Source of the DNA: Nanobdellota archaeon
Lineage (GTDB): Archaea > Nanobdellota > Nanobdellia > Pacearchaeales > GW2011-AR1
Direction of reading: 5' to 3'
Assembly (NCBI GenBank): GCA_038044745.1
Contig: JBBSZK010000002.1
Coordinates: forward strand, 35,790-99,789
DNA length: 64,000 nt
Below, one piece after another: positions 4,142-60,301 of the stretch. The position numbers and the translations under genes were made by a program. The notes beneath the pieces were generated by a model. It worked only from the letters and a program-made list of their open reading frames with translations. It had not been told where the DNA came from and did not search any database. Numbering within the stretch: the first letter of the stretch is position 1; every line of letters begins with the position of its first letter.

Positions 4142-4142
4142 C

Positions 4143-30290: not shown

Positions 30291-30363
30291 GCCCTTGTAG
30301 TCTAGTGGCCAAGGACGTCGCCCTTTCGCGGCGAAAACCCGGGTTCAAATCCCGGCAGGGGCA
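30291..30363 (+). tRNA. tRNA-Glu (anticodon UUC)
   Basis: Hand fold: acceptor GCCCUUG/CAGGGGC (one G-U), D stem GUCU/AGGAC, anticodon stem UCGCC/GGCGA, loop CUUUCGC, T arm CCGGG-UUCAAAU-CCCGG, discriminator A. No encoded CCA. Confidence 0.8.
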
Positions 30364-30380
30364 TAAACCATTTTGGCATT
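30351..30380 (+). repeat. attL: 30-bp direct repeat (cccggcaggggcataaaccattttggcatt) overlapping the last 13 nt of tRNA-Glu
   Basis: Exact copy at 57948..57977. The flanking sequence diverges on both sides. Confidence 0.8.
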
Positions 30381-30445
30381 TTCACGGAAACTCGGTCAGC
30401 CAAACGGCGGACATTGCTTATAACATAAATGTGCCCTAAAAGCAC

Positions 30446-31594
30446 ATGAAGATAGACCCATATAATAACAAAGAAAGATACCTTGCATGGCAACAATCGA
30501 CTACCAAGGGTATTCCCAATATTTCAAGCCAAAACTCTGAGATCATACTTCACTATCTAGAAGATATGGAAAGAGGGCTGAATGTAGCAATTGGAAGCCC
30601 AAAGGGTGGCCGAAGTTACCATAGATTAAATTCTCTAAAGGAACGGATGATTTTCTTTGCCAGACAATTTGCAGAACGACACGGAACAATAAAGCTGACA
30701 GAGATTACAGAGGATCAAATGTTAAACTTCTTCTTTGACATGAGAAAAGGGATAGTGAAAAAGCAAGACGGAGGCACCTATAAATCGGTCGATACATACG
30801 CTCGCATTTTTAGAGCATTTTGGCATTGGCACCAAAAAACGAGCAAGAAGCAAGGAATAGAAATCTCAGATATAACGACAGACTTGGACACAAGTGAAGA
30901 AAAACCAGACTGGGTATATCTCACAGAAAAACAAGTAAAGACGCTTGCTGAAAGCGTAAAATTCGATCATAAGGTGCTTATCATGTTTCTTTTCGATTCG
31001 GGAATACGCGCACCAACAGAACTCATCAACGTAAAAGTGTCCGATCTACACAACAATTGCAAGGAGCTTAATATTAGACAAGAAGTAAGTAAAACCTTCG
31101 GCCGTAGGATTAAACTCCTCATCTGTTCGGAACTGCTAAAAGAATACATCGAAAATAACGCCCTTCGGCCAGACGATACTCTTTTCGACATAAGTCCGCC
31201 CGTGTTTAACCGGTTCCTCAAAAGAGCAGGGTTAAAATTGTTCGGCGATAAACCCAGTCCTGCAGGACAAAATTATTCCGAGCTTACTATGTACGATTTT
31301 CGACACTGTTCTTGCTGTTACTGGTTACCACGATATAAATCGGAATCTGCCCTCAAATACAGATTTGGCTGGAAAAAAAGCGAAAAGATTCATTACTACA
31401 GTGAATTGCTAGGTATGAAAGACACAATCTCCGAAGAAGACCTCCTAATAGACACAACAAAGATAGAAATCGAGCAAAGACTCGAACGCTCAGAAAAAGA
31501 AAAAGCCATTATGCAAGATAGGATTAAGACAATGGAGTTGCAAATGGTCAATATAATGGAACTTGTCAAGCAACTCGAGATGGCTCATAAATAG
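30446..31594 (+). CDS. int: tyrosine recombinase / integrase (phage-integrase family)
   Basis: C-terminal catalytic region FDSGIRAPTELINVKVSDL...MYDFRHCSCCYWL...KIHYYSELLG is consistent with the R..H-x-x-R..Y arrangement. Lies beside the tRNA att site. Confidence 0.75.
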   Translation: MKIDPYNNKERYLAWQQSTTKGIPNISSQNSEIILHYLEDMERGLNVAIGSPKGGRSYHRLNSLKERMIFFARQFAERHGTIKLTEITEDQMLNFFFDMRKGIVKKQDGGTYKSVDTYARIFRAFWHWHQKTSKKQGIEISDITTDLDTSEEKPDWVYLTEKQVKTLAESVKFDHKVLIMFLFDSGIRAPTELINVKVSDLHNNCKELNIRQEVSKTFGRRIKLLICSELLKEYIENNALRPDDTLFDISPPVFNRFLKRAGLKLFGDKPSPAGQNYSELTMYDFRHCSCCYWLPRYKSESALKYRFGWKKSEKIHYYSELLGMKDTISEEDLLIDTTKIEIEQRLERSEKEKAIMQDRIKTMELQMVNIMELVKQLEMAHK

Positions 31595-31676
31595 ATTGCC
31601 CTAGTGTTTTTGAACTTGATCGATTGGTAACGCAGGTCTAGTTTCAGCATCGTCAAGTCTATAAAAGAGAAGACTT

Positions 31677-32843
31677 TTACTTGGCTAATTCGGCATCTAT
31701 GATTTCCTTGAAAACCGAGTAAGGTTGAGAGCCAGTCAAAGGGATCTCGTTTATGAAAAAATGAGGAGTTCCAGTTATTTTTGAAACTTGAGCATCAATT
31801 ATATCTTCTTGAACCTCTTCAGCAACGTCCGTTTCTTTAAGAAAATTAGTAATCTCAAATCCGATTTCTTTTGCCCACTTAACTAGGTCTGCTTCGAAAA
31901 AATCGACTGCACGAGTTACTTCACCTCCAGCCAAACCGCTGTCTTTAATACTCTGTTCTTTGAATATCTTTTCATACATTTTCCAATGAGCTTCGAGCCC
32001 GTAGTTCTGAAGGACAAATTCTGCGGCCTGTGCCGCAATATTAGCAGACGGATGAAACCCTAAAGGAAAGTCTCTCACAACAAACTTAACCTTCCCAGTA
32101 TCAACGTAATCCTTCTTCAATAAGGGCAATGTTTCTTTCCAAAATTTTCTACAAAATGGACACTGATAATCAAAGAACTCAAGGACGGTTACTGGAGCAT
32201 CAGCCTTTCCTATAAATGGGTCGTTCTCGTTTATTAATGCAGGCAAAGAAGATTGTTCTCCGTTTATGATACTCGCGGAGTAAATATTAAGCAGGTCTAT
32301 CATATTCTGAAGACAGTCGAGCGCATCCTCTTTGTAGTCTCTTCCTATACTGGGGTGGATATTATCATTTCTTTTCTTTTTTATCTGGTGTAAAACTCCA
32401 CAAATGTGCTCATCTAAACCAGCAACAGAAAAAAGAGTATCTATTTTTTCATCTTGACTAATTCTACCGAATTTCTCTAGTCTTCTTTTAGCAAGGCTTC
32501 TCTCTAACCCTTGTTGATAGAGATAAAGTTCGTAGAGGTAGACGCAAAATAACTCCGCCGTAATCCCCACCGATGCGATAGTCGAAAGGTATTGCTCATT
32601 CACATAGCAAAAAATTGCCTCCTTAAGACTGTCAACGACCGATCTGGGGACGTTATAGGCTCTCACATCACAGCCTATTTCGATAAAGCTATTGGCGATC
32701 GAAGAGACGTCTCGTGTATACTCTCCCACAAGCAATCCTGCGAGTCTTTCGGCCGCTTCCTTCTTAGCTGATTCGTCAGTTATCGAAGTCAATTCTTTGA
32801 GAATCGAGAATATGTTGTTCCAATAATGTTGTATGATCGCCAT
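31677..32843 (-). CDS. fusion protein: N-terminal DUF4145-like domain + C-terminal DsbA-like thioredoxin-fold domain (CPFC active site), no signal peptide
   Basis: FFDYQCPFCRKFW...GTPHFFING is a DsbA-type motif. The N-terminal region carries a HICGVLHQIKKKRNDNIHPS block like DUF4145. Confidence 0.55.
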   Translation of the reverse strand: MAIIQHYWNNIFSILKELTSITDESAKKEAAERLAGLLVGEYTRDVSSIANSFIEIGCDVRAYNVPRSVVDSLKEAIFCYVNEQYLSTIASVGITAELFCVYLYELYLYQQGLERSLAKRRLEKFGRISQDEKIDTLFSVAGLDEHICGVLHQIKKKRNDNIHPSIGRDYKEDALDCLQNMIDLLNIYSASIINGEQSSLPALINENDPFIGKADAPVTVLEFFDYQCPFCRKFWKETLPLLKKDYVDTGKVKFVVRDFPLGFHPSANIAAQAAEFVLQNYGLEAHWKMYEKIFKEQSIKDSGLAGGEVTRAVDFFEADLVKWAKEIGFEITNFLKETDVAEEVQEDIIDAQVSKITGTPHFFINEIPLTGSQPYSVFKEIIDAELAK

Positions 32844-32901
32844 AGATCAAATCCTAGTTTTATGTTTATTAGTTTTTGTATACTCAAATAAACCACCTTC
32901 T

Positions 32902-34017
32902 CTAATGATTTTCAATCAAAGAGACAAGAAGATTTATCTTCTCAAACAACTCATCAAAGGTAATTATCTCTATGTTGGACAACTCATTTCTAAAAATATC
33001 GAAGGACTTCATTTTTTCTAAATCGTTAAGTTCATCTATCGCGTTTCCGATAATTATGAATCCTCGTGGATTATAGGAATTAAATTTTGTATCTGAAGCT
33101 GCAGAGAGATTGTTAAACTCCTTAACTAAATCATCCCTCATCACACATACTTGAGTAACTGCTCCGCTAAGTTCCGGAGAGATGGAGTAGATATTATTTC
33201 TATATTTAGCTCCAATTATTTTAGCAACAGGGGTCTTTATTTCAACGATGCAGATGTTATTAGTTATTTTGTTTCTATAAAGAAAATCAGCATAATTTCC
33301 GCCTTGATTTTCTATCCCCTTTCCCCCAACATAGGCCTTATCTTTCAGAATAATATTTGGAGCAGGAGAAATATGTGAAAGAACCCAAGAATTATCTTTA
33401 AGGAGTGTCTGCCAGAATTCTTCTCTAGAATTATTCTTATTATTTTCCCATGCTTCAGTCATCCTCTTAAGAGAAGCTATATTCACCAGAGAAGAGAGTT
33501 TTTCTCCATCCTGGGTTGTTAGTTTCTTTATTGCCTGAACAAGAGCAGGAATATTGCTTGATTGGGCCACTCCAACAATAATTTCTTCTAATGTGGCAGA
33601 TCCACTTCTTTCGATTATTTTTCTGATTGCTTCACGATTCTTCAATAAATCATCTACGACCTCTCCGAGGTTCTCGTCAGTGATAGTTATCGTGTGTGTG
33701 CCCGATTTTATCCCCAATTTTTCGTAAATTTTATAACATTTATCCAACTCACTAATAAGAGTAAATAACTCTTCAGAGTGCAATTGCAATTGAGTCCATT
33801 CACCTGCCTTCAACTTATTTGCGTCAATATCTTTGTAATTTTCCCATTCTTCATTTTTACCTTTTCTTTGGAGGCGGAAAGTCCCTTTTACACTGGCCTT
33901 CGGATTCTTCTCGTTTTCTACGATAAGAGGATAAAATAAAAGTCGAGTCGTTGTTGTTTCTCGTAAGGTAATTGGGGGCGCTTCAGCAGAAGTTGAAGAT
34001 GTTGATTTGATTAGCAT
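32902..34017 (-). CDS. PD-(D/E)xK nuclease-fold protein downstream of res; possible Shedu-like (DUF4263-type) defense nuclease
   Basis: NYADFLYRNKITNNICIVEIKTP provides the D...ExK core. 371 aa. Co-oriented with and immediately downstream of the type III R-M. Confidence 0.4.
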   Translation of the reverse strand: MLIKSTSSTSAEAPPITLRETTTTRLLFYPLIVENEKNPKASVKGTFRLQRKGKNEEWENYKDIDANKLKAGEWTQLQLHSEELFTLISELDKCYKIYEKLGIKSGTHTITITDENLGEVVDDLLKNREAIRKIIERSGSATLEEIIVGVAQSSNIPALVQAIKKLTTQDGEKLSSLVNIASLKRMTEAWENNKNNSREEFWQTLLKDNSWVLSHISPAPNIILKDKAYVGGKGIENQGGNYADFLYRNKITNNICIVEIKTPVAKIIGAKYRNNIYSISPELSGAVTQVCVMRDDLVKEFNNLSAASDTKFNSYNPRGFIIIGNAIDELNDLEKMKSFDIFRNELSNIEIITFDELFEKINLLVSLIENH

Positions 34018-34079
34018 ATTATCAATCTAAAATTCACCCTTCGAGTTATAAATTCTCCTACACTACACTCAAAAGGTGT

Positions 34080-36266
34080 CTAAAACTCTAAGAACTTCCA
34101 GTCTTTACCTAAATTCGCTTCATTAAATTCGTACTTTTTACTATCATTGTAACGCCAACTGCCGTCCTTTGATACAGCTATTCCGCCCCATAATTTCTTG
34201 CCCTTTTTATTCTCTCTTTCAATGTAATGTGCTAAAGCCTCGGCCTTAGGTTTTGCGTCTTCGGCAGTCCTACCGGACTTCGTATCAAACAGCCCAACAC
34301 TTCCGTCTTTCATATAAACGATAAAGTCGACATAAAATGCCCTTTCAATACCATTTTCATCACTATACTTTACGGCAAACCATTTTATTTCGCTTTCTCC
34401 ATTTTTGAACCACCAAATCACCTTATTGCCTGCCTTTTCTAAAAGCTCGATGAATTCTTTTTCTGGTTTGCTACCTTCTTTTGCATATACGGGAACCATT
34501 ATGCTCTTCTTATAAGGCATTTTGACATATCTACTATTATGTTCGATCATTTCAGGAACCTCCCAAATGACAGGAACTTCTTCTCTCTGTTCTGCCAAAT
34601 TTTTGATAATTTTCTCAGTATATTCTTCTTTGGCCTTGTTGACTAAATCAAACAAGATTTGCCTATTTGCCTCACTTAATACTAACTTTTGTACATCGTC
34701 CCAATCTTCAACATCAACGACTTTTTCGAATAACTTGTATAACGCAGTCCTCATTACACCGCTCGAGTCTGCCGGGGCGAATGGAGTACATAGTTCTCGA
34801 AGAAGTAAATCAAAGCGATATTGTAGCTCTTTGGGAGTAAGATTGACCTTGATTCCTTCTTTATCTGACTTTACTATCTGCGCCTCATCTAGCTTAACGA
34901 TTTTACCATCGACCATTATACTCGCGATTAACTTGCCCCGATCTCTACTTATTTTTCTACCAAAATTTTGCTTTTTCCCTTCTTCTACTAATATTTTTGA
35001 AAATTCTCCCGAGAGCCTAGTCTTCTCTCTCTGTCTTTTCAAATAGATAGAATTTAGCTGAAGATTCTTATATATTACGTCATTTCTTTTTGATTCATAG
35101 ACAGTTAAGTAATCTTTGGCGATATCCTCAGCAATTTCTATGTTTGAAAGATTTGTATATACATATCCTCTGTTTAGCTTATCATTTTCATAATGTTTAA
35201 GTTCTGGCATTCGCATGATTCTTCCAACTGTCTGGATAGAGAAAACAAGGCTTTGCCATTCTCTAAACAACACCAGAATTTGAGCCCTTGGACAGTCCCA
35301 GCCTAGTGAAATAGCGTGCTTGAAGATAAGAACCTCAACATCGCTTTCATTTTTCTCTATATTTGCTAGATTAGGAGTCTTGTCTTCAGAAAGCCATCTC
35401 GCTAACTTGCCATTTTCTTCAGTTATCTTAAACTTATCTCGAAGTATTTGCTCTATATCGTCTTTCCTATCTATGACTCCAGTTTTTTTGTCAGGAAGTT
35501 GAATAAGGACTAAAGGGTTAATTTTTACCCCTTCTTTTGCGTAGGCCTTTAGAATTTCTTCGCGTTTCTTAAGTGCACACTCTAAAACTAGCTCGTCTGC
35601 ACTTTTCTTTATCTTTTCCTTATCAATTTCAGGATTTATTGAAACCTCTTTTTTGATCATTCCCTCCTCAATAACTTTTGCGAAATCAACCTCCACCATA
35701 TGACCCTCCAATTTTGGAGGTGTTGCAGTTACCTCGATAGCAACTTTGGGTGCGATCTCAGCAACAATTTCTTTCGATTTTTCACTCTTCGCAGTATGAT
35801 GGCTTTCATCAATTACAAGTATTATCTCTTGACCATCTTCTTTTGTATTTGCAATTACTGTGGAAAGGTTGTTGTCTTGTTCATTATCGCGAACATAGAG
35901 GTTTTCTTTTTTGTTGATACTTTCCCAATTGAAAAATAGAACTTCGTTCTCCCCTATTCTCTTATCTTCTAAATCTTCAAAGTCTGAGCATTTAATAATC
36001 CTAGAATCTTCAAAAAAACGGTCTAATTTTTCCTTGCTTTGTGTATGCAACTGACGAACCGAAATCCAGATAAAAGATAGGCGTTTGTTGTCAATTCTGT
36101 CAGTAACGAGTCTCTTTAACGCTTCAGCCATCATAATTGTCTTTCCGCTTCCTGTTGGAGCCTTGAAAACACAGACTTTGTTCTCCGAGAAATCAAGTAA
36201 TCGGTTCACGGTATCTCTTAATTCAGAAACCGCATCTTCTTGATAACCCTTTAATTCAATTATCAT
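34080..36266 (-). CDS. res: type III restriction enzyme, Res subunit (SF2 helicase + C-terminal nuclease domain)
   Basis: Walker A KAPTGSGKT, DEAH box VIDESHH, helicase motif VI QTVGRIMR. C-terminal FYVDFIVYMKDGSVGLFDTKSG is a PD-ExK-like nuclease block. 4-nt overlap with mod. Confidence 0.85.
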   Translation of the reverse strand: MIIELKGYQEDAVSELRDTVNRLLDFSENKVCVFKAPTGSGKTIMMAEALKRLVTDRIDNKRLSFIWISVRQLHTQSKEKLDRFFEDSRIIKCSDFEDLEDKRIGENEVLFFNWESINKKENLYVRDNEQDNNLSTVIANTKEDGQEIILVIDESHHTAKSEKSKEIVAEIAPKVAIEVTATPPKLEGHMVEVDFAKVIEEGMIKKEVSINPEIDKEKIKKSADELVLECALKKREEILKAYAKEGVKINPLVLIQLPDKKTGVIDRKDDIEQILRDKFKITEENGKLARWLSEDKTPNLANIEKNESDVEVLIFKHAISLGWDCPRAQILVLFREWQSLVFSIQTVGRIMRMPELKHYENDKLNRGYVYTNLSNIEIAEDIAKDYLTVYESKRNDVIYKNLQLNSIYLKRQREKTRLSGEFSKILVEEGKKQNFGRKISRDRGKLIASIMVDGKIVKLDEAQIVKSDKEGIKVNLTPKELQYRFDLLLRELCTPFAPADSSGVMRTALYKLFEKVVDVEDWDDVQKLVLSEANRQILFDLVNKAKEEYTEKIIKNLAEQREEVPVIWEVPEMIEHNSRYVKMPYKKSIMVPVYAKEGSKPEKEFIELLEKAGNKVIWWFKNGESEIKWFAVKYSDENGIERAFYVDFIVYMKDGSVGLFDTKSGRTAEDAKPKAEALAHYIERENKKGKKLWGGIAVSKDGSWRYNDSKKYEFNEANLGKDWKFLEF

Positions 36267-38008
36267 TTGAATATTCTCCTATACACATGAAGTATAACCT
36301 CAGGTATTGGGCACAATTTTGCTTTATTCTTAAGCTCTTTGAATTCCTTTTCGGGAACCTTCCCGTCTAATGAAAAGACGTAAACATGGATTTTTTTATC
36401 AAGCTTTTTAGCTTCCTTAACAAAGTCCTCAATAGAATCTTCATCAAACACAATACCCAAATAATAATTATGGTTCTTGAATATCTTCCATTCCCTCTTA
36501 CCCTTGACCGGAATGAATGCGTTTTCTTTAATGCAAATCATCTCTGTAGACTTATCCACAATTTTCTTTTTGTTTTTATCGGTAGGCGCTGAATCGACAA
36601 AGTCTGTCTTAAAGTATTTGAGATTTCCTCCGAGCCCTTCAACTCCCTCTTGACCTGAACTTTTGTACCCTTTGATGACTTTATTAATACGAGGGTAACA
36701 AACCTCTGTGCAGATATTATTTTCATTATTTGTGCATAAAATAAACCTTCGGCTTCCTCCGTCTTCCTTGTTTAAATCAAGGACTGCGTGGCCTGTTGTT
36801 CCAGAACCTGCAAAAAAGTCTAAAACTAAACCATTTTTTGTTGAACAATATCTTATCAGATCTTTAATCAAATAATGGGACTTGGGGCTATCGAATTTTT
36901 TCATCCCATCAAATAACTCTCTTAGAACAGTCGTAGCCGTGTCAGTTGAGTAATCACTATCAATAAGAAAAGATTTCATCTTCAATTTCTTCTCTTCGCC
37001 ATTTTTAAAAAGATAATCTTTCTGGAAAACATCCCATTCATTCCTACCAGAAACTATCTTAGCAACTAGTTCGATTGAACGAACAGTTACAGCCTTCTTT
37101 TCCCATCGCCAACAACCTTCATTACCATTCGACAACTTTGGAGTCACTTCGATATTATGAGTTTTTGTTTTTTCAACAGAAACAGTTTTTCCAACAGGGT
37201 CAATGTAAATTGGATAGAACAAATTCGGTCTATCTTTTCTTCGACTATTGGACCCCCTCTTTCTTAATCCTTGTAACCTATATTTGCCATTTTGGTCTTC
37301 TAAATTATATTCATCCAGAGACTCTGGAGTCATAGGAAGGCCATTTATCTCTGCCGAGGCAGTCTTTCTGTAAAAAAGAAGATATTCATGGGCTGTTGCA
37401 ACATACTTTTTATCGCTTCTTCCCGCAAGATTATTTACTAAACACACATTGGATATAAAGTTATTTCCACCAAAAATCTCGTCACATAAAATTCTCAGCT
37501 GAGCTTGTTCATTGTCATCGATAGAAATGACTATTAGGCCCCCATCTTTTAGAAGTTCTCTGGCAAGTTTAATTCTCTTTTCCATAAACGAGAGCCATTT
37601 ACTATGTCTATAAGCATCTTCTAAATCAACATATTGGTCATTGTATTTGAAATCTTTATTTCCAGTATTATATGGTGGATCGATATAAATAACATCAATT
37701 GATTTGTTATGAGTAAAGTTAAGGGCAGCTAAAGAATGATAGTTATCCCCTTCAATCAGTAAATTAAAATCTTTTTCTTTATCAGTTATAATCTCTTTAT
37801 CACTAACTTCTTTTAATACGGGCAGTTTGTGTTCCGTTCCAGGAAACTTCTCCTCTGTCTTTTGGCCATCCCAATTTATGTAGTAATCAAAAGCCTCTTT
37901 CGTTTTATCTTTTTCCCACACAAGCCCATAAGTCTTTTGTTTTCTTAATGCTTCAACCTCCTTGATTAAATCATCTTTAGACCAGCCAGACAAATCCCTT
38001 TTCACCAT
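36263..38008 (-). CDS. mod: type III R-M Mod subunit (beta-class N6-adenine DNA methyltransferase)
   Basis: Motif IV VIYIDPPYNTG precedes motif I VLDFFAGSGTTGHA, the beta-class order. 581 aa. Confidence 0.85.
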   Translation of the reverse strand: MVKRDLSGWSKDDLIKEVEALRKQKTYGLVWEKDKTKEAFDYYINWDGQKTEEKFPGTEHKLPVLKEVSDKEIITDKEKDFNLLIEGDNYHSLAALNFTHNKSIDVIYIDPPYNTGNKDFKYNDQYVDLEDAYRHSKWLSFMEKRIKLARELLKDGGLIVISIDDNEQAQLRILCDEIFGGNNFISNVCLVNNLAGRSDKKYVATAHEYLLFYRKTASAEINGLPMTPESLDEYNLEDQNGKYRLQGLRKRGSNSRRKDRPNLFYPIYIDPVGKTVSVEKTKTHNIEVTPKLSNGNEGCWRWEKKAVTVRSIELVAKIVSGRNEWDVFQKDYLFKNGEEKKLKMKSFLIDSDYSTDTATTVLRELFDGMKKFDSPKSHYLIKDLIRYCSTKNGLVLDFFAGSGTTGHAVLDLNKEDGGSRRFILCTNNENNICTEVCYPRINKVIKGYKSSGQEGVEGLGGNLKYFKTDFVDSAPTDKNKKKIVDKSTEMICIKENAFIPVKGKREWKIFKNHNYYLGIVFDEDSIEDFVKEAKKLDKKIHVYVFSLDGKVPEKEFKELKNKAKLCPIPEVILHVYRRIFK

Positions 38009-38043
38009 ACTTATTCCAGTAAAACAACATATAAAAATCTACT

Positions 38044-38364
38044 CTAATTACTATCTTTAACTCTTCCCAACAACAGCAAAATAGGCGTAACATCCTTCTT
38101 CTCTAAACTATCAAGTAACTGTTTTAGCTCTTTAGGCGAGCGATTATAAAACATAGCATACCCGAACTTGCCACGCTTTTCTTTGAGTTGGGGGAACATA
38201 TCCACGATTTCCTTTCGGAGCTGGATAATGTTCCATGCTTGAGTGCTTTCTTTGTAGGACAGCTTTCCCTTTATACTGATGCTCTCTCGGGGACTCAAAT
38301 ACAGCAAGTCTCTGATTGTGTTCTTCTCGTCTACTTCTTTTTCTTCTTTCATGTTAGTTCCCAC
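38044..38364 (-). CDS. hypothetical protein
   Basis: 106-aa ORF between mod and the CYTH gene. No motif recognised. Confidence 0.35.
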   Translation of the reverse strand: MGTNMKEEKEVDEKNTIRDLLYLSPRESISIKGKLSYKESTQAWNIIQLRKEIVDMFPQLKEKRGKFGYAMFYNRSPKELKQLLDSLEKKDVTPILLLLGRVKDSN

Positions 38365-38395
38365 TATCTGATTACCTTGAAGACGGTTTACTCTC

Positions 38396-38935
38396 TTATT
38401 TTACAAAGTTTACTTTACCTGTTGCAATATCGCATAACCAGACGTCGTTTCTAATCTTATCTCGTGATATTCCCATCTTTTCAAGCATCTGAGCGAGTGC
38501 TTCTTTCTTTTCAGCTATTTGCGATTCTTCACCATCAGTCTCGATTTCGATGAAATTTCCAATATCCTTTACTTCATCTAACGTGATGCTAAACTCGCCA
38601 AGCTTGAAAGTCTCTCGCTTTTTGTCGATAACTCCTAAAAGAGGAAAGTTAAGTCCATTTAGAATCTGTTTAAAGACTTCAAGGTTATCAACTGCTGTTT
38701 CGTATTCTTTTGTAACACCATCCGCAATATTGACATGATATGCAAATACACCTGTATTTTCGTTTGGTTTATACCTGAGACGAATATACTCTTTGGTTTT
38801 TCGCGTATCTCGTTGAGGATGATTGTAATATTCATCAATCTGATGCTTTTGTTTTTCTTCTTTAGCTCCTAACTTCTTAAGTTCTGCTTTGACTTTCTGC
38901 TTGTCTTCAAAGGTTGCTTTGATTTCAATTTCCAT
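38396..38935 (-). CDS. CYTH-domain protein (class IV adenylyl cyclase / triphosphate tunnel metalloenzyme family)
   Basis: N-terminal MEIEIKATF is the ExExK signature. 179 aa, a typical size for CyaB-like CYTH proteins. Confidence 0.7.
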   Translation of the reverse strand: MEIEIKATFEDKQKVKAELKKLGAKEEKQKHQIDEYYNHPQRDTRKTKEYIRLRYKPNENTGVFAYHVNIADGVTKEYETAVDNLEVFKQILNGLNFPLLGVIDKKRETFKLGEFSITLDEVKDIGNFIEIETDGEESQIAEKKEALAQMLEKMGISRDKIRNDVWLCDIATGKVNFVK

Positions 38936-38958
38936 GTAGTTGTATGCCTCCTTTCATG

Positions 38959-40410
38959 CTATGCTCCATTGACCGTAAGTTGCATATGGCGCGTTGCACG
39001 TCTATGCGAAGGTCTATGACATGTCGATTCTGTTCTAATGACTTGAATATCATTACGTTGATCTTTATCTATAATTTCCTCTAGATATAATGGATCAATG
39101 GCAGGATTGACCTCTTGCATGCCTATTGCTTCTGCAATATGATGATAGTGATCAACCATTAATCTAACTCCATTTCGACCTAAGCTAGTAGGTGTAGCAA
39201 CTGGTTGTTTATGTGTGTATCTATTATAATCTGCTGAAAGTACACGTAATTCTCCTGCCATGTTACGTTCAAATCCGCTTCCTGGGTGAGGGGTAATAAA
39301 CGAGATATAGGTAATAACGCCAGGCAATCTTCCTGTTTCTTCAATAAATACTGCGTTTTCAGCAAGTGTTTCTGGAGTTTCGCCTGGATATCCAAACATA
39401 TACACAGGATTGACTTTACATCCACTCTCTAATAGAACGTCAAATGCTCCGCGAATGGTACGTGCTTTAACGCCCTTGTCCATAGCATCAAGCATGGCTT
39501 GAGAGACTGATTCTACGCCAGTATGGATTGTATCAACTCCTGCTGCGACCATTTGCCTTATAAGGTCTGGCTTTATGCCATCAATGCGCGATTTAGCCTT
39601 ATAGTTTAACCCTAAGTTAGCTTGTTCAATAGCTCCAAAAAGCTCAGCACACCATTTTCCATTTAAGGTAATTGTTTCGTCTTTGAAGTGTACTCGCTTA
39701 AATCCAAATCCATTAAGCATTTCAAGTTCAGCTAAAATATTTTCAATAGAACGCCTGCGATAGCGATATTCCCATAGTTCATTGAGCGTGCAGTGATCGC
39801 AAGCCATTGGACAACCACGCGCTGCATATATTCCTGCAGGCGACATCTTAGCATATTCTTCAACTGGTACCAAATCATAGGCAGGCAGGGGGATTGTGTC
39901 TAAGTCTTTGATAAGTTCCTTATCGGGCATGCGCACAATATTATCTCCATCCCTAAACGCAACTCCCTTTAGATCTGTTTTATTTAAAGTACCTTCAGCA
40001 ACTCGTAAGACTTTGGACAATCCCTCTTCTCCTTCCCCAAATATTACATAATCAATTGCTCCAGTTCGCAAAACAACATCCGCGTTAAACGTAGGATATA
40101 ATCCGCCCATGACAGTTATTTTGCCCATTTCTTTAGCTTTTCGCAAGATAGCTAACGAATCTGGAGATTCAGCTGTACATGCTCCAATTCCTACCACATC
40201 AGAATCTCTAAGGTCTTGTTCAAGGTTGCGAGGAATGCCGAGAGCCTTGTTAAGTCGATAGTCTATAACTCTCACATGAGTTCCATTTCGATCTTGAACA
40301 TAGCCTGCAAGGTACAAAAGACCTAACGGAATGCCGACGTCTCCTGCGTATCCTTGTTTCTTAACTGGGAACTTAATTTCAGGCTTAATGAGAGTCAATT
40401 TAGCTGTCAT
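38959..40410 (-). CDS. B12-binding radical SAM enzyme (class B radical SAM)
   Basis: N-terminal cobalamin-binding-like Rossmann segment (DVVGIGACTAESPDS...ITVMGG). CxxxCxxC cluster ARGCPMACDHC. 483 aa. Confidence 0.75.
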   Translation of the reverse strand: MTAKLTLIKPEIKFPVKKQGYAGDVGIPLGLLYLAGYVQDRNGTHVRVIDYRLNKALGIPRNLEQDLRDSDVVGIGACTAESPDSLAILRKAKEMGKITVMGGLYPTFNADVVLRTGAIDYVIFGEGEEGLSKVLRVAEGTLNKTDLKGVAFRDGDNIVRMPDKELIKDLDTIPLPAYDLVPVEEYAKMSPAGIYAARGCPMACDHCTLNELWEYRYRRRSIENILAELEMLNGFGFKRVHFKDETITLNGKWCAELFGAIEQANLGLNYKAKSRIDGIKPDLIRQMVAAGVDTIHTGVESVSQAMLDAMDKGVKARTIRGAFDVLLESGCKVNPVYMFGYPGETPETLAENAVFIEETGRLPGVITYISFITPHPGSGFERNMAGELRVLSADYNRYTHKQPVATPTSLGRNGVRLMVDHYHHIAEAIGMQEVNPAIDPLYLEEIIDKDQRNDIQVIRTESTCHRPSHRRATRHMQLTVNGA

Positions 40411-40501
40411 TGTAAAATTACTACAAAAGTAAATTATTTAAACCCTGTTTAACTTTTTATTGAACAAAATGGAGTCTGTAAAGTAGATTACTCTGACTAA
40501 A

Positions 40502-41746
40502 ATGGAAGAAAAAACCTTTGCAATATACCCTAGCGATAAGAAAGATTATGACCTAAAGATCGTTCCAGACATAGCAGACGGCAAGTTGTTAACAGTTTTT
40601 TGTTCTTTTACTTTCATTACTCCAAACTATTCTATTCTTTTTACTTTAGAGCAATTGAGAAAATTTGCCAGCTCGGGCAATTATCAAGTGCATATTGTGC
40701 TGTGGGATATGAATATCTTAGCTAATCCTTACTTCGAAAAACTCTATTCCCTTAAGAAAATTGCTCATCCCTCTTCTTTTATTGATGATAAAGTTCAAGA
40801 GATAAAGGCTATCACCAGCTCTATGGGTTTTAATAAAGAAAAAGTATTAGTTTACAAATCTTCAGATTTATGGAAACGCCTTATTTCCTATAAAGATGAT
40901 GATCTATTCCAGGAGTTTTATTCTATTCTGGCTCAAATGAAGACTACGAGTTTTCATGTTTCAGGCGATAAGATATCTCACATGATCCAAATCCCTATGG
41001 ACATTTTCTTTTGCAACCATTTCCATAAATTGTATCCAGAAGACGTTGAACGTCCTATTGATTTAGTCTTTTTCGGAGAAAATAAAGAAGAGCTTTATCT
41101 GGCTTGTAGGGAACTTATGATTTCCAAGCGTATTGTCCAACATAAAAACCCTCTGTTTATTCTCATGAAGAATATACCTTATTTGCTGTTCAATAACATT
41201 ACTCCCGAATGGAATATGAGCTTAAGAGAAATTAAAGACATTGTTGTGGGATGCAATCCTTCCAAAAAGGACTTATTCACTCTTCTTAGTCATCTTGATG
41301 AAATTTCAGGTTTTGTTCGTATAAAGAAAAAAGGATATAATCAGGATTTAGAATATTCTTCTTTTTACAAAGAATATAAGAATATTTTAACAGAAGAATT
41401 ATTCCAAATTCTGGCAGATAATCTCTATCTTTTCTTTCAAGATAGAAAGAAGAAGTATCTGAAGGCTACTGGGGAGATTGAAGAAACAATTCTTAACCTC
41501 TCAAAAAAGAATGATGTCCAAGAAATGGGTTCGATATTGAAGAGCACGATTGCATTAGATATCCTTCTGAAAGCAGATGGGACTCGCACAACTACAGATA
41601 TAGCCAAGGAATTGAATAAGTCTATCGCTACTATAAGCACCTATGCTAATGATCTTAAGAAGATGAAGCTTATTCGGGTTTTGCCTGAAGGCAAGCTTAA
41701 AAGAAATATTAAAGGTGTGAAGATTAATCTAGAACTGGGAATTTAG
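40502..41746 (+). CDS. hypothetical protein with C-terminal winged-helix HTH; N-terminal domain weakly resembles a degenerate class I aaRS (TrpRS/TyrRS-like) Rossmann fold
   Basis: C-terminal TTDIAKELNKSIATISTYANDLKKMKLIRV is a wHTH. N-terminal LLTVFCSFTFITPNYSILFTLEQL...HIVLWDMNILANP has the pattern of the TrpRS HIGH region but lacks HIGH. Confidence 0.35.
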   Translation: MEEKTFAIYPSDKKDYDLKIVPDIADGKLLTVFCSFTFITPNYSILFTLEQLRKFASSGNYQVHIVLWDMNILANPYFEKLYSLKKIAHPSSFIDDKVQEIKAITSSMGFNKEKVLVYKSSDLWKRLISYKDDDLFQEFYSILAQMKTTSFHVSGDKISHMIQIPMDIFFCNHFHKLYPEDVERPIDLVFFGENKEELYLACRELMISKRIVQHKNPLFILMKNIPYLLFNNITPEWNMSLREIKDIVVGCNPSKKDLFTLLSHLDEISGFVRIKKKGYNQDLEYSSFYKEYKNILTEELFQILADNLYLFFQDRKKKYLKATGEIEETILNLSKKNDVQEMGSILKSTIALDILLKADGTRTTTDIAKELNKSIATISTYANDLKKMKLIRVLPEGKLKRNIKGVKINLELGI

Positions 41747-43786: not shown

Positions 43787-46700
43787 GAAGAAAATCTAAA
43801 ATTGTAATAACCTTGGTCTTTTTTATTTGTCTTGTAATTATTGCCATGTCATCGGTAAAGGCAATAGGCCCTTTACCAATCTATCTACAAGACCCTATTG
43901 TTCCTGATTCTCCCTTATCACTTCAAAGCAGGTCAGAGACAGACGTATACACAGGAGCATTTACTCAGAATTTCCCTATTCAATTACCTCTAGGTACCAA
44001 TGGGTTAAAACCCTCTTTATCTTTATATTATAATAGTCATATGTTTGATTCTCCAAGACAGAGTTTGATAGGTAATGGTTGGGATGTACAGTTAAATTAT
44101 ATAGAAAGAAGAACTAATTACACTGCTTCTAATATTTCGGACGATTACTACGTTATTGTTTTTAACGGAATCAAAGAAGAGAATTTAATTTACGACCCAG
44201 TTCAAAGATCGTATGAGACAAAAATAAGGAACTTTTTTTATATTTCTAATTTAAGTGGAGGACAAGGCACGGGAGGTTTATATTGGACAGTAAAAACTGG
44301 GGACGGATCTATATATAGATTCGGTTATTGGAATAATTCTTTATTGAAGGCTGGACTTTATAACTATACATCACGATGGTATCTTGATTTAGTTAATGAC
44401 ACCTATGGAAACCAAATTTTTTACAATTATAGCATTAACCCTTATGCAAATGATAGTTCTGCAGTTTATCCACTTTCAATAGAATATAATAACGATAGAC
44501 AGAGAAAAATAGAATTTGTTCTAACTTCAGTAGATAGAATCGATAAGAAGACTCAATATATAGAAGGTAGTTTTATCAGATTAAGTCGAGCAATAAAAGA
44601 AGTTAGGATTTTAGCTAATGGTTCTCTTGTCAGAAAGTATGATTTGGGATACAACGGTACAGATTATCGAAATCTTTTAATAAATTTAACTGAATTTGGT
44701 TCAAATAACTCTCTTTCATTAAGCCCAATATCTTTTAATTATTCATCATCTTCTAAGAATTTTACCAACATAAATTCTCAGTGGTCTATTCCTTCGGGGG
44801 TATTCTTTCATATAGGTTGGACTAATGGGGGGAGTGATACGGGTGTTCGCTTGGCCGATATCAATAGAGACGGCAAGGTAGATTTATTAAAGGCCTATTG
44901 TAATTCTAACACCTATTCGTGCTATCAAAATCCAAATCAAATAGATAGAGCAGTGTGGTTGAATAATGGAAGCGGGTGGACAAGCTCAAATCTTCAATTG
45001 CCACCTATTCCTTTTGGTGTTAGCTATAATTGGGACAGCGGAGCAAGAATTATAGATATAAACGGAGATGGTTTTACAGACATAGTACAAACTTGGATAG
45101 ATGATCAGGATCCGAATAAAGTTATAAGAGAAACGTGGTTAAATAATGGTACGGCTTTCATAAATAATACTAACTGGAGTATTGAATCCGACATTTTCTT
45201 TCACATGGGATGGGTTGATGGAGGGAGTGATACTGGAATAAGAATTGCAGATTTAAACGGAGACTCGTTACCTGACCTAGCAAAAAGTTATTGTAACAAC
45301 CCGCCGTGGTTATGTTCAAATCCTGAAAGAAAGGTATGGATTAATACTGGAAAGGGTTGGAGAAATGACTCTGGAATTTCCTTACCGCCGGTCACTTTCA
45401 GAGTTAGTAATCACGCAGAACCTGGCACATTCATAAATGATTTAAATGGAGATGGACTAGCAGATGTTGTTCAATATTGGAGGCAAGATGATTTCTCTTC
45501 GGATCAACCAACACAATTAAGTGTGTGGTTAAATAATGGAAGCGGATTTAACAATTTTACCTCTAATTGGAGCATGCCTTCAGAAGCATTCTACGTAGGA
45601 TATACTAATGGAGGTATGGATAACGGTGTTCGTTTAATAGACATAAATGGAGACAATCTTATTGATGTCATCCAAGCGAGATGTTACTCTAATACTCGAG
45701 GGTGTTATGATTCACCAGGGCTTATTCAAAAAAATGTTTGGTTAAATAATGGAAAAGGGTGGGTTCTAGACCAAAACTGGAGTCTGCCTGATCCAATTGC
45801 CTTAATTAACAATTATAACTGGGATCCTGGTACAAGAATGGCAGATATCAACGGGGATGGGATTACCGATTTTATACAGCTATGGCAGGACGGGTCTGAT
45901 GAAATTAAAGATATTTGGATAAATAATGGTCAAAAAGGATATATTCTTCAGTCAGTTAAAAATCAATTTGGAGGTATTACTCGCGCCTCGTACAAACAGT
46001 CAACTCTTCTAAATAATACAGGCGTAGACACTTTAAATGATATTGGTTTCAATTTGTGGGTAGTTGAAAATATAAGCAAGGACAATGGATTAAACACTTC
46101 GCATAAGGTTATACAGGTTGCTCGATATAATTATGTGGGAGCATTATACGAATATCCTACAAAAGAATACAGAGGGTTTGCATATAGTCGTGAGAATTTA
46201 AGTGAAGGAATAATCAAAGAACATTATTTTCTACAAGAAGAAGGCAACAGAGGTCAAGAATATCTCATTAAATTAAGTAACAAAAGCGGTTCGTTGTACA
46301 CAACCATTTATAGAGATTGGAAATTATCTTTTAGCAATGGTTTATATAAGCTAGAATTAAAAAACATAACTGAACTAGTTTATGATGGTTTGGCAATTAA
46401 CCCTCGTCCACGCCTTACTGTTTTTAATTATGATCAATTTGGGAATATAATAGTAAAACAACTATTGGGAGATCCTCAAAACTTAGAAGATGATACATAT
46501 GAATATTTTGAATATGCTACAAATAATAGTACATGGATAATCAATAAAGTTAAAAATTATACTTTGTACGGGAGCGATAACCAAACCAAGTTTAGACAAA
46601 CGCTTTATTATTATGATAATTTAGTATATGGTGGCTCTCCAACTAAAGGAAGTATCACGAAGAAAGAGGAATGGTTAAGCGGAGGAACAAATCCTTTAAC

Positions 46701-56355: not shown

Positions 56356-56682
56356 TTAGCCAGTTACAAACTGCACAACTAATGGCGCTGCCCATATTAT
56401 GACCAAACCTATGAGAACATACATTATCATCGCCTTGGCTCCTTCTCTTTTTCCTGGATCGCTTCCAGACATAATGTAGTTAGCTCCCGCCAAAAGCAAG
56501 ATTAGAACTGCAATGAAAGTAGCTGCATATTTGATAAGATTGTAAATCTTCATCACAGGCTCTAAAATTTGGTCAAAAGTCTCTTTGTCTTCATCGCTTA
56601 TAGTATCATTAAATTGTGCGGATACCAAAGGAATAAAGGACAATCCTATAAACAAAAGGACAGCAAAAGTTTGAGCTTTCAT
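56356..56682 (-). CDS. small pilin-like membrane protein (signal peptide + hydrophobic hairpin), VirB2/TrbC-like candidate
   Basis: MKAQTFAVLLFIGLSFIPLVSAQ, then two hydrophobic segments (ATFIAVLILLLAGANYIMSG, AMIMYVLIGLVIIWAAPLV). 108 aa. Confidence 0.4.
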   Translation of the reverse strand: MKAQTFAVLLFIGLSFIPLVSAQFNDTISDEDKETFDQILEPVMKIYNLIKYAATFIAVLILLLAGANYIMSGSDPGKREGAKAMIMYVLIGLVIIWAAPLVVQFVTG

Positions 56683-56870
56683 TCTTCCACCTCCTTTTCA
56701 GCTGATTGTGAACGCCACTTTTTTAGGAACTTATTGGATTGTTTGAAACGCGCCACCTCTTTTTTTAAGCCCTTTTTGTACTTGTCTTGAAAGAATCCAA
56801 AACAGGTTTCGCACAAATCTCCTTCTTGTTTTTCAATTTCTACTCCGCAAATAATGCAATTGTTTTTCAT
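56679..56870 (-). CDS. small zinc-ribbon protein
   Basis: CIICGVEIEKQEGDLCETCFGFF has CxxC...CxxC. 63 aa. Confidence 0.4.
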   Translation of the reverse strand: MKNNCIICGVEIEKQEGDLCETCFGFFQDKYKKGLKKEVARFKQSNKFLKKWRSQSAEKEVEE

Positions 56871-56962
56871 AATTGTTCGTTAGAAAGTAATTATAAAAGA
56901 AATCGGAAACCAAACGGACTACGATGTGGACTACTAAATGGACTACGAGCCAATAGTCCACT

Positions 56963-57571
56963 TTGTCCCCGACTCGTTATAAGGTTATTTTGATGGGAGA
57001 ATTCATGAAACAAAAACCATTTTCATGGAAATTTGATATACGGAAAAAGTATAGTATCATCTACGCTGACCCTCCGTGGAAATATAATACAAAAGTCAAT
57101 TACCCCACCGTTCCCATTAGAGATATTCAGAAATTCCCTATTGATCAAATTGCAGATGATAACTGCGCCTTGTTTCTCTGGGCCACCTATGCTATTCTAC
57201 CTGAATGCATAGAAACTCTCAAAAAATGGGGATTCAGATACGTTACCGTTGCATTCACGTGGGTCAAGACCAATAAAAATGACGGCAGGCCATTTTTTGG
57301 GCTAGGAGCATGGACACGAGCCAATGCAGAAGTCTGCTTATTAGGATTAAAGGGAAATGTAAAGCGAGAATCCTCAAAAGTAAAGCAAGTGGTTCTCTCC
57401 CCCTTACGCGAACACAGCCGTAAGCCTGATGAAATTCGTGATAGTATTGTAGAATTATTGGGAGACTTACCCCGTATTGAATTATTTGCTCGCCAAACCG
57501 TAAGGGGCTGGGATTGTTGGGGTAACGAAACTAAAAAATTCAACAAGGAGACTCATGGAAAGCACCATTGA
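56963..57571 (+). CDS. MT-A70-family N6-adenine DNA methyltransferase (orphan; start more likely ATG at 57005)
   Basis: YSIIYADPPWKY carries the DPPW motif. GGGAGA SD-like sequence lies upstream of the 57005 ATG. No adjacent restriction gene. Confidence 0.7.
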   Translation: MSPTRYKVILMGEFMKQKPFSWKFDIRKKYSIIYADPPWKYNTKVNYPTVPIRDIQKFPIDQIADDNCALFLWATYAILPECIETLKKWGFRYVTVAFTWVKTNKNDGRPFFGLGAWTRANAEVCLLGLKGNVKRESSKVKQVVLSPLREHSRKPDEIRDSIVELLGDLPRIELFARQTVRGWDCWGNETKKFNKETHGKHH

Positions 57572-57642
57572 AAGTGTTGATCCTGAAGAAATTATGAGAA
57601 GACTTGAGCGATTGATCGTTCTTCTGACTAAAAAATACAAAG

Positions 57643-57828
57643 TTGATAATGAAAAAGAACGTAAGACTATCGCTTAGGATAACATCAGACTTGTTAAATA
57701 ACCTTAGAAGGGAAGCTGAAGATCAAGAGACCTCAATAGCAAGCCTATGCCGAGAAAAACTGAATAATCGTTCACAATTAAATAAGATAGAGTCTATTGT
57801 CTTGGATATACAAAAGAGAGTTAAATAG
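57643..57828 (+). CDS. ribbon-helix-helix (CopG/Arc-like) DNA-binding protein
   Basis: KKNVRLSLRITSDLLNNLRREAEDQETSIASLCREKL shows a beta-strand then two helices. 61 aa. Confidence 0.45.
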   Translation: MIMKKNVRLSLRITSDLLNNLRREAEDQETSIASLCREKLNNRSQLNKIESIVLDIQKRVK

Positions 57829-57850
57829 AGAACAAATGCCAAAGACGCTT

Positions 57851-57877
57851 AAACTCGATCTCGACAATCTTTATAAA
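57851..57877 (+). repeat. copy 1 of ~25-nt repeat AAACTC-N-ATCTCGACAATC(T/C)TTA-AAA
   Basis: aaactcgatctcgacaatctttataaa. Related copies at 58621..58637 and 59195..59221. Confidence 0.5.
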
Positions 57878-57947
57878 TCGCTCCAGTCTCAGACAAATAA
57901 GGCACATTCATAAGCGAGTTTCACCGAATCTGCCAAAATGGCGCGAG

Positions 57948-57977
57948 CCCGGCAGGGGCATAAACCATTTTGGCATT
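57948..57977 (+). repeat. attR: second copy of the 30-bp direct repeat; preceded by the 11-bp inverted-repeat arm tgccaaaatgg (57931..57941), complementary to ccattttggca inside the repeat
   Basis: Exact match to 30351..30380. Confidence 0.8.
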
Positions 57978-60300: not shown

Positions 60301-60301
60301 A

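Follow-up and report, generated by a model that had tools for sequence, protein, structure and literature searches.

A window of 64,000 nucleotides from a Nanobdellota archaeon (assembly GCA_038044745.1, contig JBBSZK010000002.1, positions 35,790 to 99,789 of the forward strand; all coordinates below count from the first letter of this window) contains an integrated mobile element that is bounded by attachment (att) sites at a tRNA-Glu(UUC) gene and encodes a tyrosine integrase, the components of a type IV secretion system (T4SS) and a variable cargo of defence and toxin-related genes. The element measures 27,597 bp plus one duplicated 30-bp core. We are highly confident that it integrated at tRNA-Glu by site-specific recombination. 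It is probable, at a clearly lower level of confidence, that it combines integration with self-transfer in the manner of an integrative and conjugative element (ICE); self-transfer by conjugation, taken by itself, is a tentative proposal and almost evenly balanced.

The ends of the element are defined by an exact 30-bp direct repeat, CCCGGCAGGGGCATAAACCATTTTGGCATT, at 30351..30380 (attL, + strand) and 57948..57977 (attR, + strand). Only these two copies occur in the window when up to three mismatches are allowed (shuffled sequences are expected to give none), and a looser scan of the window detected no degenerate third copy and no internal att sites that would indicate tandem elements. The tRNA-Glu(UUC) gene serving as integration target was located on the + strand at 30291..30363 by Rfam (66.4 bits) and at 30290-30364 by ARAGORN, and attL therefore covers the last 13 nt of the tRNA together with 17 nt past the tRNA end. 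A perfect 11-nt inverted repeat, TGCCAAAATGG / CCATTTTGGCA, found by a motif scan, brackets the tRNA-derived core at attR (57931..57975). The same motif adjoins tRNA fragments upstream of homologous integrases in two related loci (L096 and L094; related genomes and contigs are given L numbers here), and its arms are probably integrase binding sites. Between the repeats, the GC content is 35.6%, vs 44.2% in the left flank and 43.7% at 58901-64000, and tetranucleotide similarity to the flanks is lower inside the element. The first 0.9 kb outside attR (57978-58900) is AT-rich as well (34.3% GC). It encodes a 68-aa DUF7557/ribbon-helix-helix (RHH)-like protein (orf68) and a 114-aa open reading frame (ORF), followed by a ParE/MazE pair, and may be what is left of an earlier insertion, or else a toxin-antitoxin cassette that is itself mobile.

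The integrase gene (382 aa; 30446..31594, + strand) is intact and starts 65 nt past the repeat, which is 82 nt past the tRNA end. Its product matches XerA_Arch of NCBIfam (9.5e-11) and the PHROG integrase family (3e-15) and has no Pfam match of its own. In an alignment of 34 homologues, the catalytic residues R188, K216, Y283-x-x-R286-H287, W309, H316 and Y317/Y318 are invariant. An undivided integrase gene beside attL is the arrangement of pNOB8-type integrases, unlike those of the SSV type. The databases hold more than 2,400 homologues of this integrase; the best 120 are all at least 62% identical to it, many of them match PF00589, and the few that carry a taxon label are assigned to Pacearchaeota, to Nanoarchaeota or simply to 'archaeon'. 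A tblastn search of the PLSDB plasmids returned no match at E<=1e-3, a result compatible with a distant kinship to the pNOB8 integrase. The integrase is also absent from IMG/VR and from the INPHARED phages, and the att 30-mer from IMG/VR. In L076 and L014, integrase homologues (57% and 39% identity) follow immediately after tRNA-Glu, whereas others adjoin tRNA-Ser (L100), tRNA-Asp (L113) or, in L093, a tRNA-Asp fragment; the element family targets several tRNA genes. The contigs of two siblings, L155 and L156, with integrases 88% and 91% identical to that of the window, start (1-75 and 1-80) at, or 5 nt after, the first base past the att core, L156 beginning with TTCACGG, which corresponds to window position 30381. 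That assembly breaks off at the att boundary in this way may be due to a mixture of junctions in those samples, arising either from coexisting integrated and excised forms or from different insertion sites. The exact repeat overlapping the last 13 nt of tRNA-Glu, the intact integrase beside attL in the pNOB8-type arrangement (placed at 83 nt, in agreement with our 82 nt from the tRNA end) and the AT-rich interior had all been claimed in the original prediction, made from the window alone, and each of them holds.

Comparison with related genomes shows that the window carries an insertion. Relatives commonly keep the order GTPase, Methyltransf_33 gene or genes, tRNA-Glu, rhomboid protease and histidyl-tRNA synthetase (HisRS). 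We compared the gap between tRNA-Glu and the rhomboid gene in 11 genomes that have both on the same side. It spans 472-1804 bp in 10 of them, as against 30.6 kb in the window; given the conserved gene order, this difference implies an insertion, and these ten relatives provide the unoccupied tRNA-Glu locus that the original prediction had proposed to look for. The eleventh genome (L048) has a gap of 6980 bp, which holds an integrase homologue and a partial tRNA-Glu copy. In L021, a ParE/MazE pair abuts tRNA-Glu, and the window has its ParE/MazE pair beyond attR. The closest relative (L011, CAYHBQ010000023.1) shares the same tRNA, a GTPase with 96% identity and left-flank DNA that is about 91% identical. 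It diverges straight after ...GGCATAA, where a different ORF of more than 837 aa replaces the element, and no integrase was found within the 2.6 kb available (1-2600). This ORF resembles a helicase with repeated C-terminal modules, and its appearance suggests a candidate of the nuclease-helicase type. Because L011 carries a different gene at this position, the 3' end of tRNA-Glu is a hot spot for variable DNA.

The second main component is the transfer-type module at the right-hand end. The element encodes VirB2, VirB3, VirB4 and VirB6. Its T4SS operon, on the - strand, begins with a small zinc-ribbon protein with a CxxC...CxxC pattern (orf63, 56679..56870), conserved in 14 related loci. The next gene encodes a VirB2/TrbC-type pilin of 108 aa (56356..56682) with a signal peptide and two transmembrane helices, matching T4SS_pilin (3e-12) and TrbC (4e-7) of Pfam. 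It is followed by a Cys-rich membrane protein of the cassette (orf151, 55940..56395), conserved in 15 related loci, and by orf213 (55326..55967), a membrane-anchored cassette protein according to its hydrophobicity profile, for which tblastn gave no match in 57 related loci. A VirB6/TrbL-like polytopic membrane protein (orf270, 54513..55325) comes next. Its identity was decided by fold comparison, not by sequence: a profile of 35 orf270 homologues found no PDB match, and Pfam gave weak pilin-like matches only. One orf270 homologue with 62% identity (P0328) lies on a 2.8-kb contig labelled Candidatus Staskawiczbacteria, of the candidate phyla radiation (CPR); it is either a case of mis-binning or a trace of cassette exchange between CPR bacteria and DPANN archaea. 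The operon continues with a 280-aa protein (53671..54513) in which VirB3 (Pfam PrgI) is fused to an N-terminal TraC-like VirB4 domain (N-terminal part of NCBIfam VirB4_plasma, 8e-19), and with the ATPase part of the split VirB4, 748 aa (51456..53702), which matches P-loop_TraG, DUF87 and AAA_10 of Pfam and conju_CD1110 of NCBIfam (6e-90). The original prediction had described a module of VirB4-, VirB6- and VirB2-like proteins; all three are present, VirB3/PrgI is to be added, and VirB4 is distributed over two ORFs, of 280 and 748 aa.

The conju_CD1110 score of the 748-aa ORF is 302.5 bits against a cut-off of 325, for an ORF that lacks the N-terminal part, this being on the 280-aa ORF. The same protein also matches the TraC-F and VirB4_CagE families, and it has a weak match to CedD of NCBIfam (3.6e-10, 39 bits). 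Its best plasmid relatives in PLSDB are VirB4 proteins of the CD1110 family from Firmicutes and Actinobacteria, at about 30% identity, and 4023 of the 5000 best-scoring VirB4 matches belong to PLSDB records typed as conjugative. Among the candidates scored, about 1500 homologues were found at E<=1e-5; the 120 best share at least 59% identity, and every labelled one among them is from DPANN. Most homologues are single proteins of about 990 aa that join the PrgI/TraC-like and ATPase parts. The window protein belongs with a subclade of 17 clusters (P0001-P0017; 73-96% identical), mostly of about 746-798 aa, in which P0006, P0009 and P0010 are about 1000 aa long. Since this subclade consists mostly of short ATPases and a separate N-terminal ORF of about 280 aa is seen in the contigs examined (L091 and L093), the split of VirB4 looks natural and not like a sequencing artefact. 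The two ORFs overlap by 32 nt (53671-53702) in an A-rich stretch, and the two parts may be either joined by a frameshift or separate subunits.

Divergently from the T4SS operon, on the + strand, lie an orphan MT-A70 DNA methylase (57005..57571; Pfam MT-A70 3e-34, PADLOC MTase_II 2e-62) and, as the last gene before attR, an RHH protein of the CopG/NikA-like type (orf59, 57649..57828; Pfam CopG_antitoxin 4e-4). Homologues of orf59 occur in 13-15 related loci, one of them with a weak NikA-like match. The intergenic region between the divergent operons contains three copies of an (A/T)GTGGACTA-like motif (56921..56966; two direct, one inverted), detected by a motif scan. The position of these GTGGACTA-like motifs between the T4SS operon and the MT-A70 gene would make them a candidate RHH operator or transfer-origin-like site.

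This arrangement recurs. Sibling elements were surveyed by look-ups around integrase and VirB4 homologues together with a scan of metagenomes, which gave 57 loci. The same block is present in contigs that are independent of one another and differ in cargo: an RHH gene (orf59 or NikA-like), a DNA methylase gene (MT-A70 or N6_N4), then, divergently, the zinc-ribbon protein, VirB2 pilin, orf151, orf270, VirB3 with the VirB4 N-domain, and the VirB4 ATPase. Across the 57 loci, VirB4 was found in 57, PrgI in 51, orf270 in 48 and the pilin in 42. Where flanking sequence is available in the closest VirB4 clade, RHH and methylase genes almost always accompany the cassette, the MT-A70 gene being swapped for an N6_N4 methylase in some sibling elements, and an integrase lies within a few kb of the cassette in L100, L102, L103 and L127. 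A sibling element located on an 885-kb contig agrees with the window in gene order and orientation; its integrase and VirB4 are 77% and 76% identical to those of the window, and an attR-like site lies about 17.5 kb from its integrase. Clean att repeats were not found in L096, L094 or L100, and the 885-kb contig showed an 11-nt repeat and an inverted motif only. The integrase, methylase, RHH protein, zinc-ribbon protein and T4SS are thus a conserved backbone, whereas the defence and toxin cargo varies. L155 carries a type I restriction-modification (R-M) system, followed by an orf106-like ORF (107 aa) and a CYTH gene, and L156 a type III R-M system. These integrases, 88 and 91% identical to that of the window but associated with different cargo, imply recent cargo turnover. 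Kinase and HD proteins make up the cargo of L096, and a Sigma70_r2 (sigma-70-region-2) protein and a HATPase_c_3 protein that of L094. Homologues of the backbone proteins number from hundreds to thousands in the databases, mostly annotated as 'hypothetical', 'DUF87' or 'ATP-binding'. The combination of modules had been called unusual for an archaeal integrated element in the original prediction; by this comparison it is no isolated case, with a backbone conserved across thousands of DPANN homologues and cargo alone varying.

An odd layout was observed in L096 (9870-13260), L094 (7660-12620) and L093 (7764-9915). In these loci, an inverted partial tRNA-Asp, consisting of the 3' half from the anticodon loop, lies upstream of the integrase, and after one to four cargo genes a complete tRNA-Asp follows, then the RHH/methylase and T4SS block. 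The tRNA halves flank the integrase segment as inverted repeats, an arrangement that does not follow from simple integration. Inverted tRNA-Asp halves are also present in element A of the 885-kb contig. Integrase-driven inversion and nested elements are possible explanations.

The anatomy of the element and the comparison with relatives show that its attP site recombined with the 3' end of tRNA-Glu(UUC) through the action of its own tyrosine integrase, a reaction that regenerated the tRNA and left the integrase gene intact beside attL. For the further course we propose that the excised circle could pass to another cell via the VirB2/3/4/6 apparatus, presumably with no bacterial-type relaxase involved, as in other archaeal conjugative elements. 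The orphan methylase might shield the incoming DNA from restriction, and the RHH protein may regulate the divergent operons or aid in DNA processing. All published archaeal conjugative plasmids and ICEs are without relaxases (PMC6563490, PMC9905601), and a missing relaxase is therefore expected.

Several results weigh against self-transfer, and one of them against a simple course of integration. Scans of the element ORFs with Pfam, NCBIfam, PADLOC and PHROGs recognised no coupling ATPase of the VirD4/TraG or TcpA/FtsK type, no relaxase family (only the weakly CopG/NikA-like RHH protein) and no replication or partition gene. VirB4 and VirD4 are both found in most Sulfolobus plasmids and thaumarchaeal ICEs (PMC6563490). 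Look-ups by exact protein match, made for the two flanking genes as well as for the integrase, orf59 and orf68, yielded neither an empty site nor a circular junction in the same population: all contigs recovered for the flanking and junction genes represent the integrated state, with no attB or attP junction contig among them. The circular excised form and the empty site, which the original prediction had proposed as checks, were thus not obtained from the contigs. The T4SS cassette has no integrase within 10 kb in L092, where it stands beside thermosome and DeoC genes, and in many of the 57 loci. For the related T4SS of Patescibacteria, a role in episymbiosis and not in conjugation has been proposed (PMC12102498). 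The inverted tRNA-Asp halves around some sibling integrases, finally, are not accounted for by simple integration. Because neither a coupling ATPase, relaxase or replication gene nor an excised circle or empty site was found, we consider integration well supported and self-transfer only inferred. The same applies to the earlier suggestion that the element is both conjugative and armed with toxins, of which the T4SS-type and toxin modules are borne out and the conjugative part is tentative.

The missing VirD4-type ATPase is the main reason why another explanation stays alive, namely that the element is integrative and not conjugative. VirB2, VirB3, VirB4 and VirB6 would then form a cell-surface machine for attachment, for effector or toxin delivery, or for DNA import of the Ced/Ted kind, acting on the host or on competitors, and the element would hold this machine as a module that raises fitness and would spread by other routes such as vesicles, transformation or host-cell contact. 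We regard this as rather unlikely. Coupling protein and relaxase are both missing from the element, and the set of VirB2, VirB6 and VirB4 equals that of the Ced and Ted import systems of Thermoproteota (PMC9905601), which likewise comprise minimal VirB2-like pilins, a VirB6-like protein and a VirB4-like ATPase with no coupling protein or relaxase. Ced and Ted, however, are chromosomal, are linked neither to att sites nor to an integrase and take up DNA for repair, whereas the present module includes VirB3 (PrgI) and a VirB4 of the CD1110 type. The set also matches the T4SS of Patescibacteria, which is related to the FATA class of mating pair formation (MPF) systems, is required for growth as an epibiont and in most cases has no relaxase (PMC12102498). 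Shared features are VirB4, PrgI/VirB3, VirB6 and pilins of the PF18895/TrbC type, a monoderm-type affinity of VirB4, ultra-small episymbiont hosts and the same groundwater habitats. The CPR systems, in contrast, are described as chromosomal, often near the replication origin, and exapted for epibiotic growth, whereas the module described here lies in an att-bounded archaeal element with integrase, methylase and RHH protein. A role in host interaction would further agree with the cassettes that occur without a nearby integrase, with the linkage of a giant surface protein and the secreted protein orf516 (see below) to VirB4 in two elements, and with nanohaloarchaea, where giant surface proteins are linked to VirB4-like ATPases (PMC10266531). 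Two points nevertheless favour DNA transfer. The cassettes of the closest VirB4 clade are in tight linkage with methylase and RHH genes, and often with an integrase by a tRNA, a linkage that a DNA-transfer backbone predicts; and VirB4 is nearest to the conjugative-element ATPases of monoderm bacteria.

It is very improbable that the element is a fixed genomic island, once mobile, which no longer excises and has become part of the lineage's variable region after tRNA-Glu. The integrated state found in all contigs of several assemblies and runs would agree with this, as would the hot-spot character of the site, where L011 holds a different gene, putatively for a nuclease-helicase, and the AT-rich 0.9 kb past attR. 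However, the two 30-bp repeats have not diverged, the integrase ORF is undamaged and retains every catalytic residue, all backbone genes are intact ORFs, and the siblings with 88-91% identical integrases and other cargo point to recent turnover. That the element is a provirus or an ordinary integrated plasmid, or a chimera produced by assembly or binning, is scarcely credible: the sequence is metagenome-assembled, and tRNA-targeting integrases and AT-rich islands are typical of proviruses too, yet no capsid, portal, terminase or replication protein was found, PHROGs recognises the integrase only, neither the integrase nor the att core has an IMG/VR match, nor the integrase one in INPHARED or PLSDB, and the same junctions were assembled independently in ENA contigs, an NCBI metagenome-assembled genome (MAG) and Logan contigs.

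As an ICE-like element, it resembles known systems in part. It shares with the ICEs of Thaumarchaeota (Krupovic et al. 2019, PMC6563490) and with the pNOB8-type plasmids of Sulfolobales the insertion into a tRNA gene, the undivided tyrosine integrase gene, genes of the VirB4, VirB6, VirB3 and pilin types, the lack of a recognisable relaxase, and defence or adaptive cargo. Unlike here, those elements normally have VirD4/TraG in addition to VirB4, and the thaumarchaeal ones also have TFIIB/ParB and replication modules (PMC6563490). Their median size is 64 kb, as against 27.6 kb here, the host belongs to DPANN, and the integrase has no BLAST-level similarity to plasmid-borne integrases in PLSDB. 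With the ICEs of monoderm bacteria (Tn916, ICEBs1 and CD1110-type, MPF classes FA and FATA) the element has in common a tyrosine integrase, often directed at tRNA genes, a CD1110-family VirB4, a PrgI-type VirB3 and accessory defence or methylase genes. Those ICEs, however, need a relaxase, an origin of transfer (oriT) and a coupling protein of the VirD4 or TcpA/FtsK type, none of which was recognised here, and the identity of VirB4 is about 30%.

Between the integrase and the T4SS module, the central part of the cargo encodes secreted proteins on the + strand. The first (RHS476, 41928..43358) is a short RHS protein of 476 aa with a signal peptide, a YD repeat, an Rhs-associated core (residues 160-237, TIGR03696, 4e-20) and a C-terminal toxin domain. 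This last domain (about residues 388-463) matches the toxin tip of a bacterial PT-VENN protein (PDB 8ey4_A, 3e-12). The repeat region, about 130 aa, is below the size for a full cage; the YD repeats, Rhs core and variable C-terminal toxin are the features by which RHS476 is predicted to be an Rhs polymorphic toxin. The following gene, orf143 (43355..43786), is a candidate immunity gene by its position. Its product matches no family in any library scanned and does not resemble the 153-aa ORF that occupies the corresponding position in L152, a difference that leaves a conserved immunity family without support. Of the RHS toxin with immunity in the original prediction, then, the toxin features were found, and the immunity function is assigned by position only.

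The next gene encodes a secreted giant of 1912 aa (43783..49521) with FG-GAP and YD repeats, TcdB_toxin_midN (1e-17) and RHS_repeat (5e-29), the hallmarks of a TcB-like propeller and cocoon, and a LamG tail (residues 1516-1912). It has no Rhs core or toxin tip, the Rhs core being on the separate 476-aa protein upstream, and no gene for a TcA-like translocator or for a fused TcC-type core was found among the element genes. Over its last 400 residues, which comprise LamG and one more domain, the giant shows 71% identity with the tail of an L152 protein of 1394 aa (1949-6133 on Hainich contig R1_3531) that has a subtilase (Peptidase_S8) head. Because this tail is shared with a subtilase-headed protein and TcA is lacking, the giant is best read as a surface protein of modular build whose head can be exchanged, and not as a classical toxin complex (Tc) toxin. 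The third gene encodes the secreted protein orf516 (49521..51071), a partner of LamG-tailed proteins by VirB4, with a 78% identical homologue at the same position in L152; in both elements, a LamG-tailed gene is followed by the orf516 homologue, adjoining virB4. The proteins resemble Rhs toxins and Tc BC cocoons in their YD/RHS repeats, TcdB_toxin_midN propeller, FG-GAP repeats, Rhs core followed by a variable tip, and small downstream ORF. They differ from them in that the cage (1912 aa) ends in a LamG tail, that core and toxin are on a short upstream protein of 476 aa, that TcA is absent and that a sibling element has a subtilase in place of the cage on the same tail.

It is conceivable, although quite unlikely, that VirB2/3/4/6, the LamG-tailed proteins and the 516-aa partner together form a mobile contact kit of episymbiotic archaea. 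The apparatus would act on the host cell and move DNA or effectors across two archaeal envelopes, the RHS/Tc cage and the subtilase would be swappable warheads, and the integrase elements would shuffle the kit among DPANN. If this were true, the capacity for host interaction would be horizontally transferable and a T4SS would work without a coupling protein.

The defence genes lie on the - strand downstream of the integrase. A DsbA/thioredoxin-like cargo protein of 388 aa (31677..32843; Pfam Thioredoxin_4 3e-26) has a homologue near VirB4 in L117 and L118. It is followed by the Shedu nuclease SduA (32902..34017), with SduA_N (PF21407, 8e-28), SduA_C (PF14082, 4e-29) and a full-length PADLOC SduA match (4e-126); the N-terminal domain and the C-terminal DUF4263 nuclease that define Shedu are both present. 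The restriction subunit (Res helicase, 34080..36266; ResIII 3e-22, PADLOC REase_III 5e-20) and the modification methylase (Mod, 36263..38008; N6_N4_Mtase 1e-40, PADLOC MTase_III 1e-91) overlap by 4 nt, and these adjacent res and mod genes are predicted to constitute a type III R-M system. The gene orf106 (38044..38364) accompanies the CYTH gene in siblings (tblastn matches in L014, L098-L100 and L139, and the 107-aa ORF by the CYTH gene in L155). The CYTH/class IV adenylate cyclase-family protein (38396..38935) matches Pfam CYTH (5e-23) and TIGR00318 cyaB (98 bits, over the cut-off), and the adjacent gene (38959..40410) encodes a BchE-like B12-binding radical SAM enzyme according to Pfam and NCBIfam. 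This pair was considered as a known defence system and rejected, as PADLOC recognised no system and gave a weak PDC-M51A match of the radical SAM protein only; it is possibly an anti-virus system. A 414-aa protein with a C-terminal winged helix (40502..41746, + strand; library scans) is not conserved in siblings according to the locus comparison. All the domains named in the original prediction (type III R-M, Shedu, CYTH/radical SAM, RHS, TcB-like giant, MT-A70 and RHH) were recovered by these scans.

DPANN archaea are abundant, have reduced genomes and depend on hosts. The window sequence is present on the Hainich groundwater contig Hain_H43_01um_R1_59 (112 kb; 0.1-µm filter fraction) and in the MAG GCA_964363815.1. 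Its neighbourhood contains archaeal genes for the ribosomal proteins S24e and S27e, Spt4 and Rpb7, and the flanking GTPase is found in 80 species-representative genomes at 46-96% identity. The labels of nearly all of these (Woesearchaeota, Pacearchaeota or Nanoarchaeota) identify the host as a DPANN archaeon, an uncultivated one among the Nanoarchaeota of Pacearchaeota/Woesearchaeota type. In two Logan contigs from other runs of the same study (L009, 961-1539, ERR3858118; L010, 116-694, ERR3858116), the MT-A70 protein is called with 192 instead of 188 aa and a 40-aa ORF is gone, variants that indicate micro-diversity of the element at its attR end within the population.

Some features of the flanks were also observed. 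In the left flank (15970-24735) are genes for a giant protein of 2267 aa with a LamG domain, for a Beta_helix protein and for one with a PhageMetallopep domain. L038 has tandem LamG-tailed segments like those of the element giant, and the host lineage seems to possess large LamG surface proteins quite generally. On the other side, the last 13 nt of tRNA-His(GUG) and 13 nt beyond (62454-62479) are repeated 93 nt downstream (62547-62572), as two 26-nt copies with 96% identity and about 67 nt between them, next to the HisRS gene. This duplication looks like a scar of the att type, left by an integrated element that was lost or has decayed. We considered whether tRNA-His is followed by another integrase and rejected this, the ORF after this tRNA being histidyl-tRNA synthetase. 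The segment 27990-28113 would fit an intron-containing archaeal tRNA (Rfam tRNA, 124 nt over a 71-position model); it was missed by ARAGORN in bacterial mode.

Integrative elements at tRNA genes, archaeal ICEs, Shedu, type III R-M systems and RHS toxins are already known. Our literature searches found no described DPANN ICE or T4SS element; Wu, Liu & Ni 2024 (Nat Microbiol 9:3362), which treats the viruses and mobile elements of DPANN archaea, was outside their scope and may already catalogue this family. What seems to be new, in that we could not find it described, is a DPANN-wide backbone of integrase, methylase, RHH protein and four-gene T4SS with no coupling protein, associated with defence genes and modular toxin or surface proteins. 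Gene exchange in DPANN archaea and their action on hosts are largely obscure, and the window offers a cleanly delimited entry point: the att repeats are exact, the integrase gene is undamaged, and relatives allow comparison with the empty site. For a group now without any genetic tool, the integrase and its att sites could be turned into one. The cargo is a catalogue of what DPANN cells mobilise, from Shedu and restriction systems to RHS/Tc-type toxins and modular surface proteins. The element family is a test case for a minimal conjugation-type machine, with neither coupling ATPase nor relaxase, and a candidate vehicle for DPANN gene flow.

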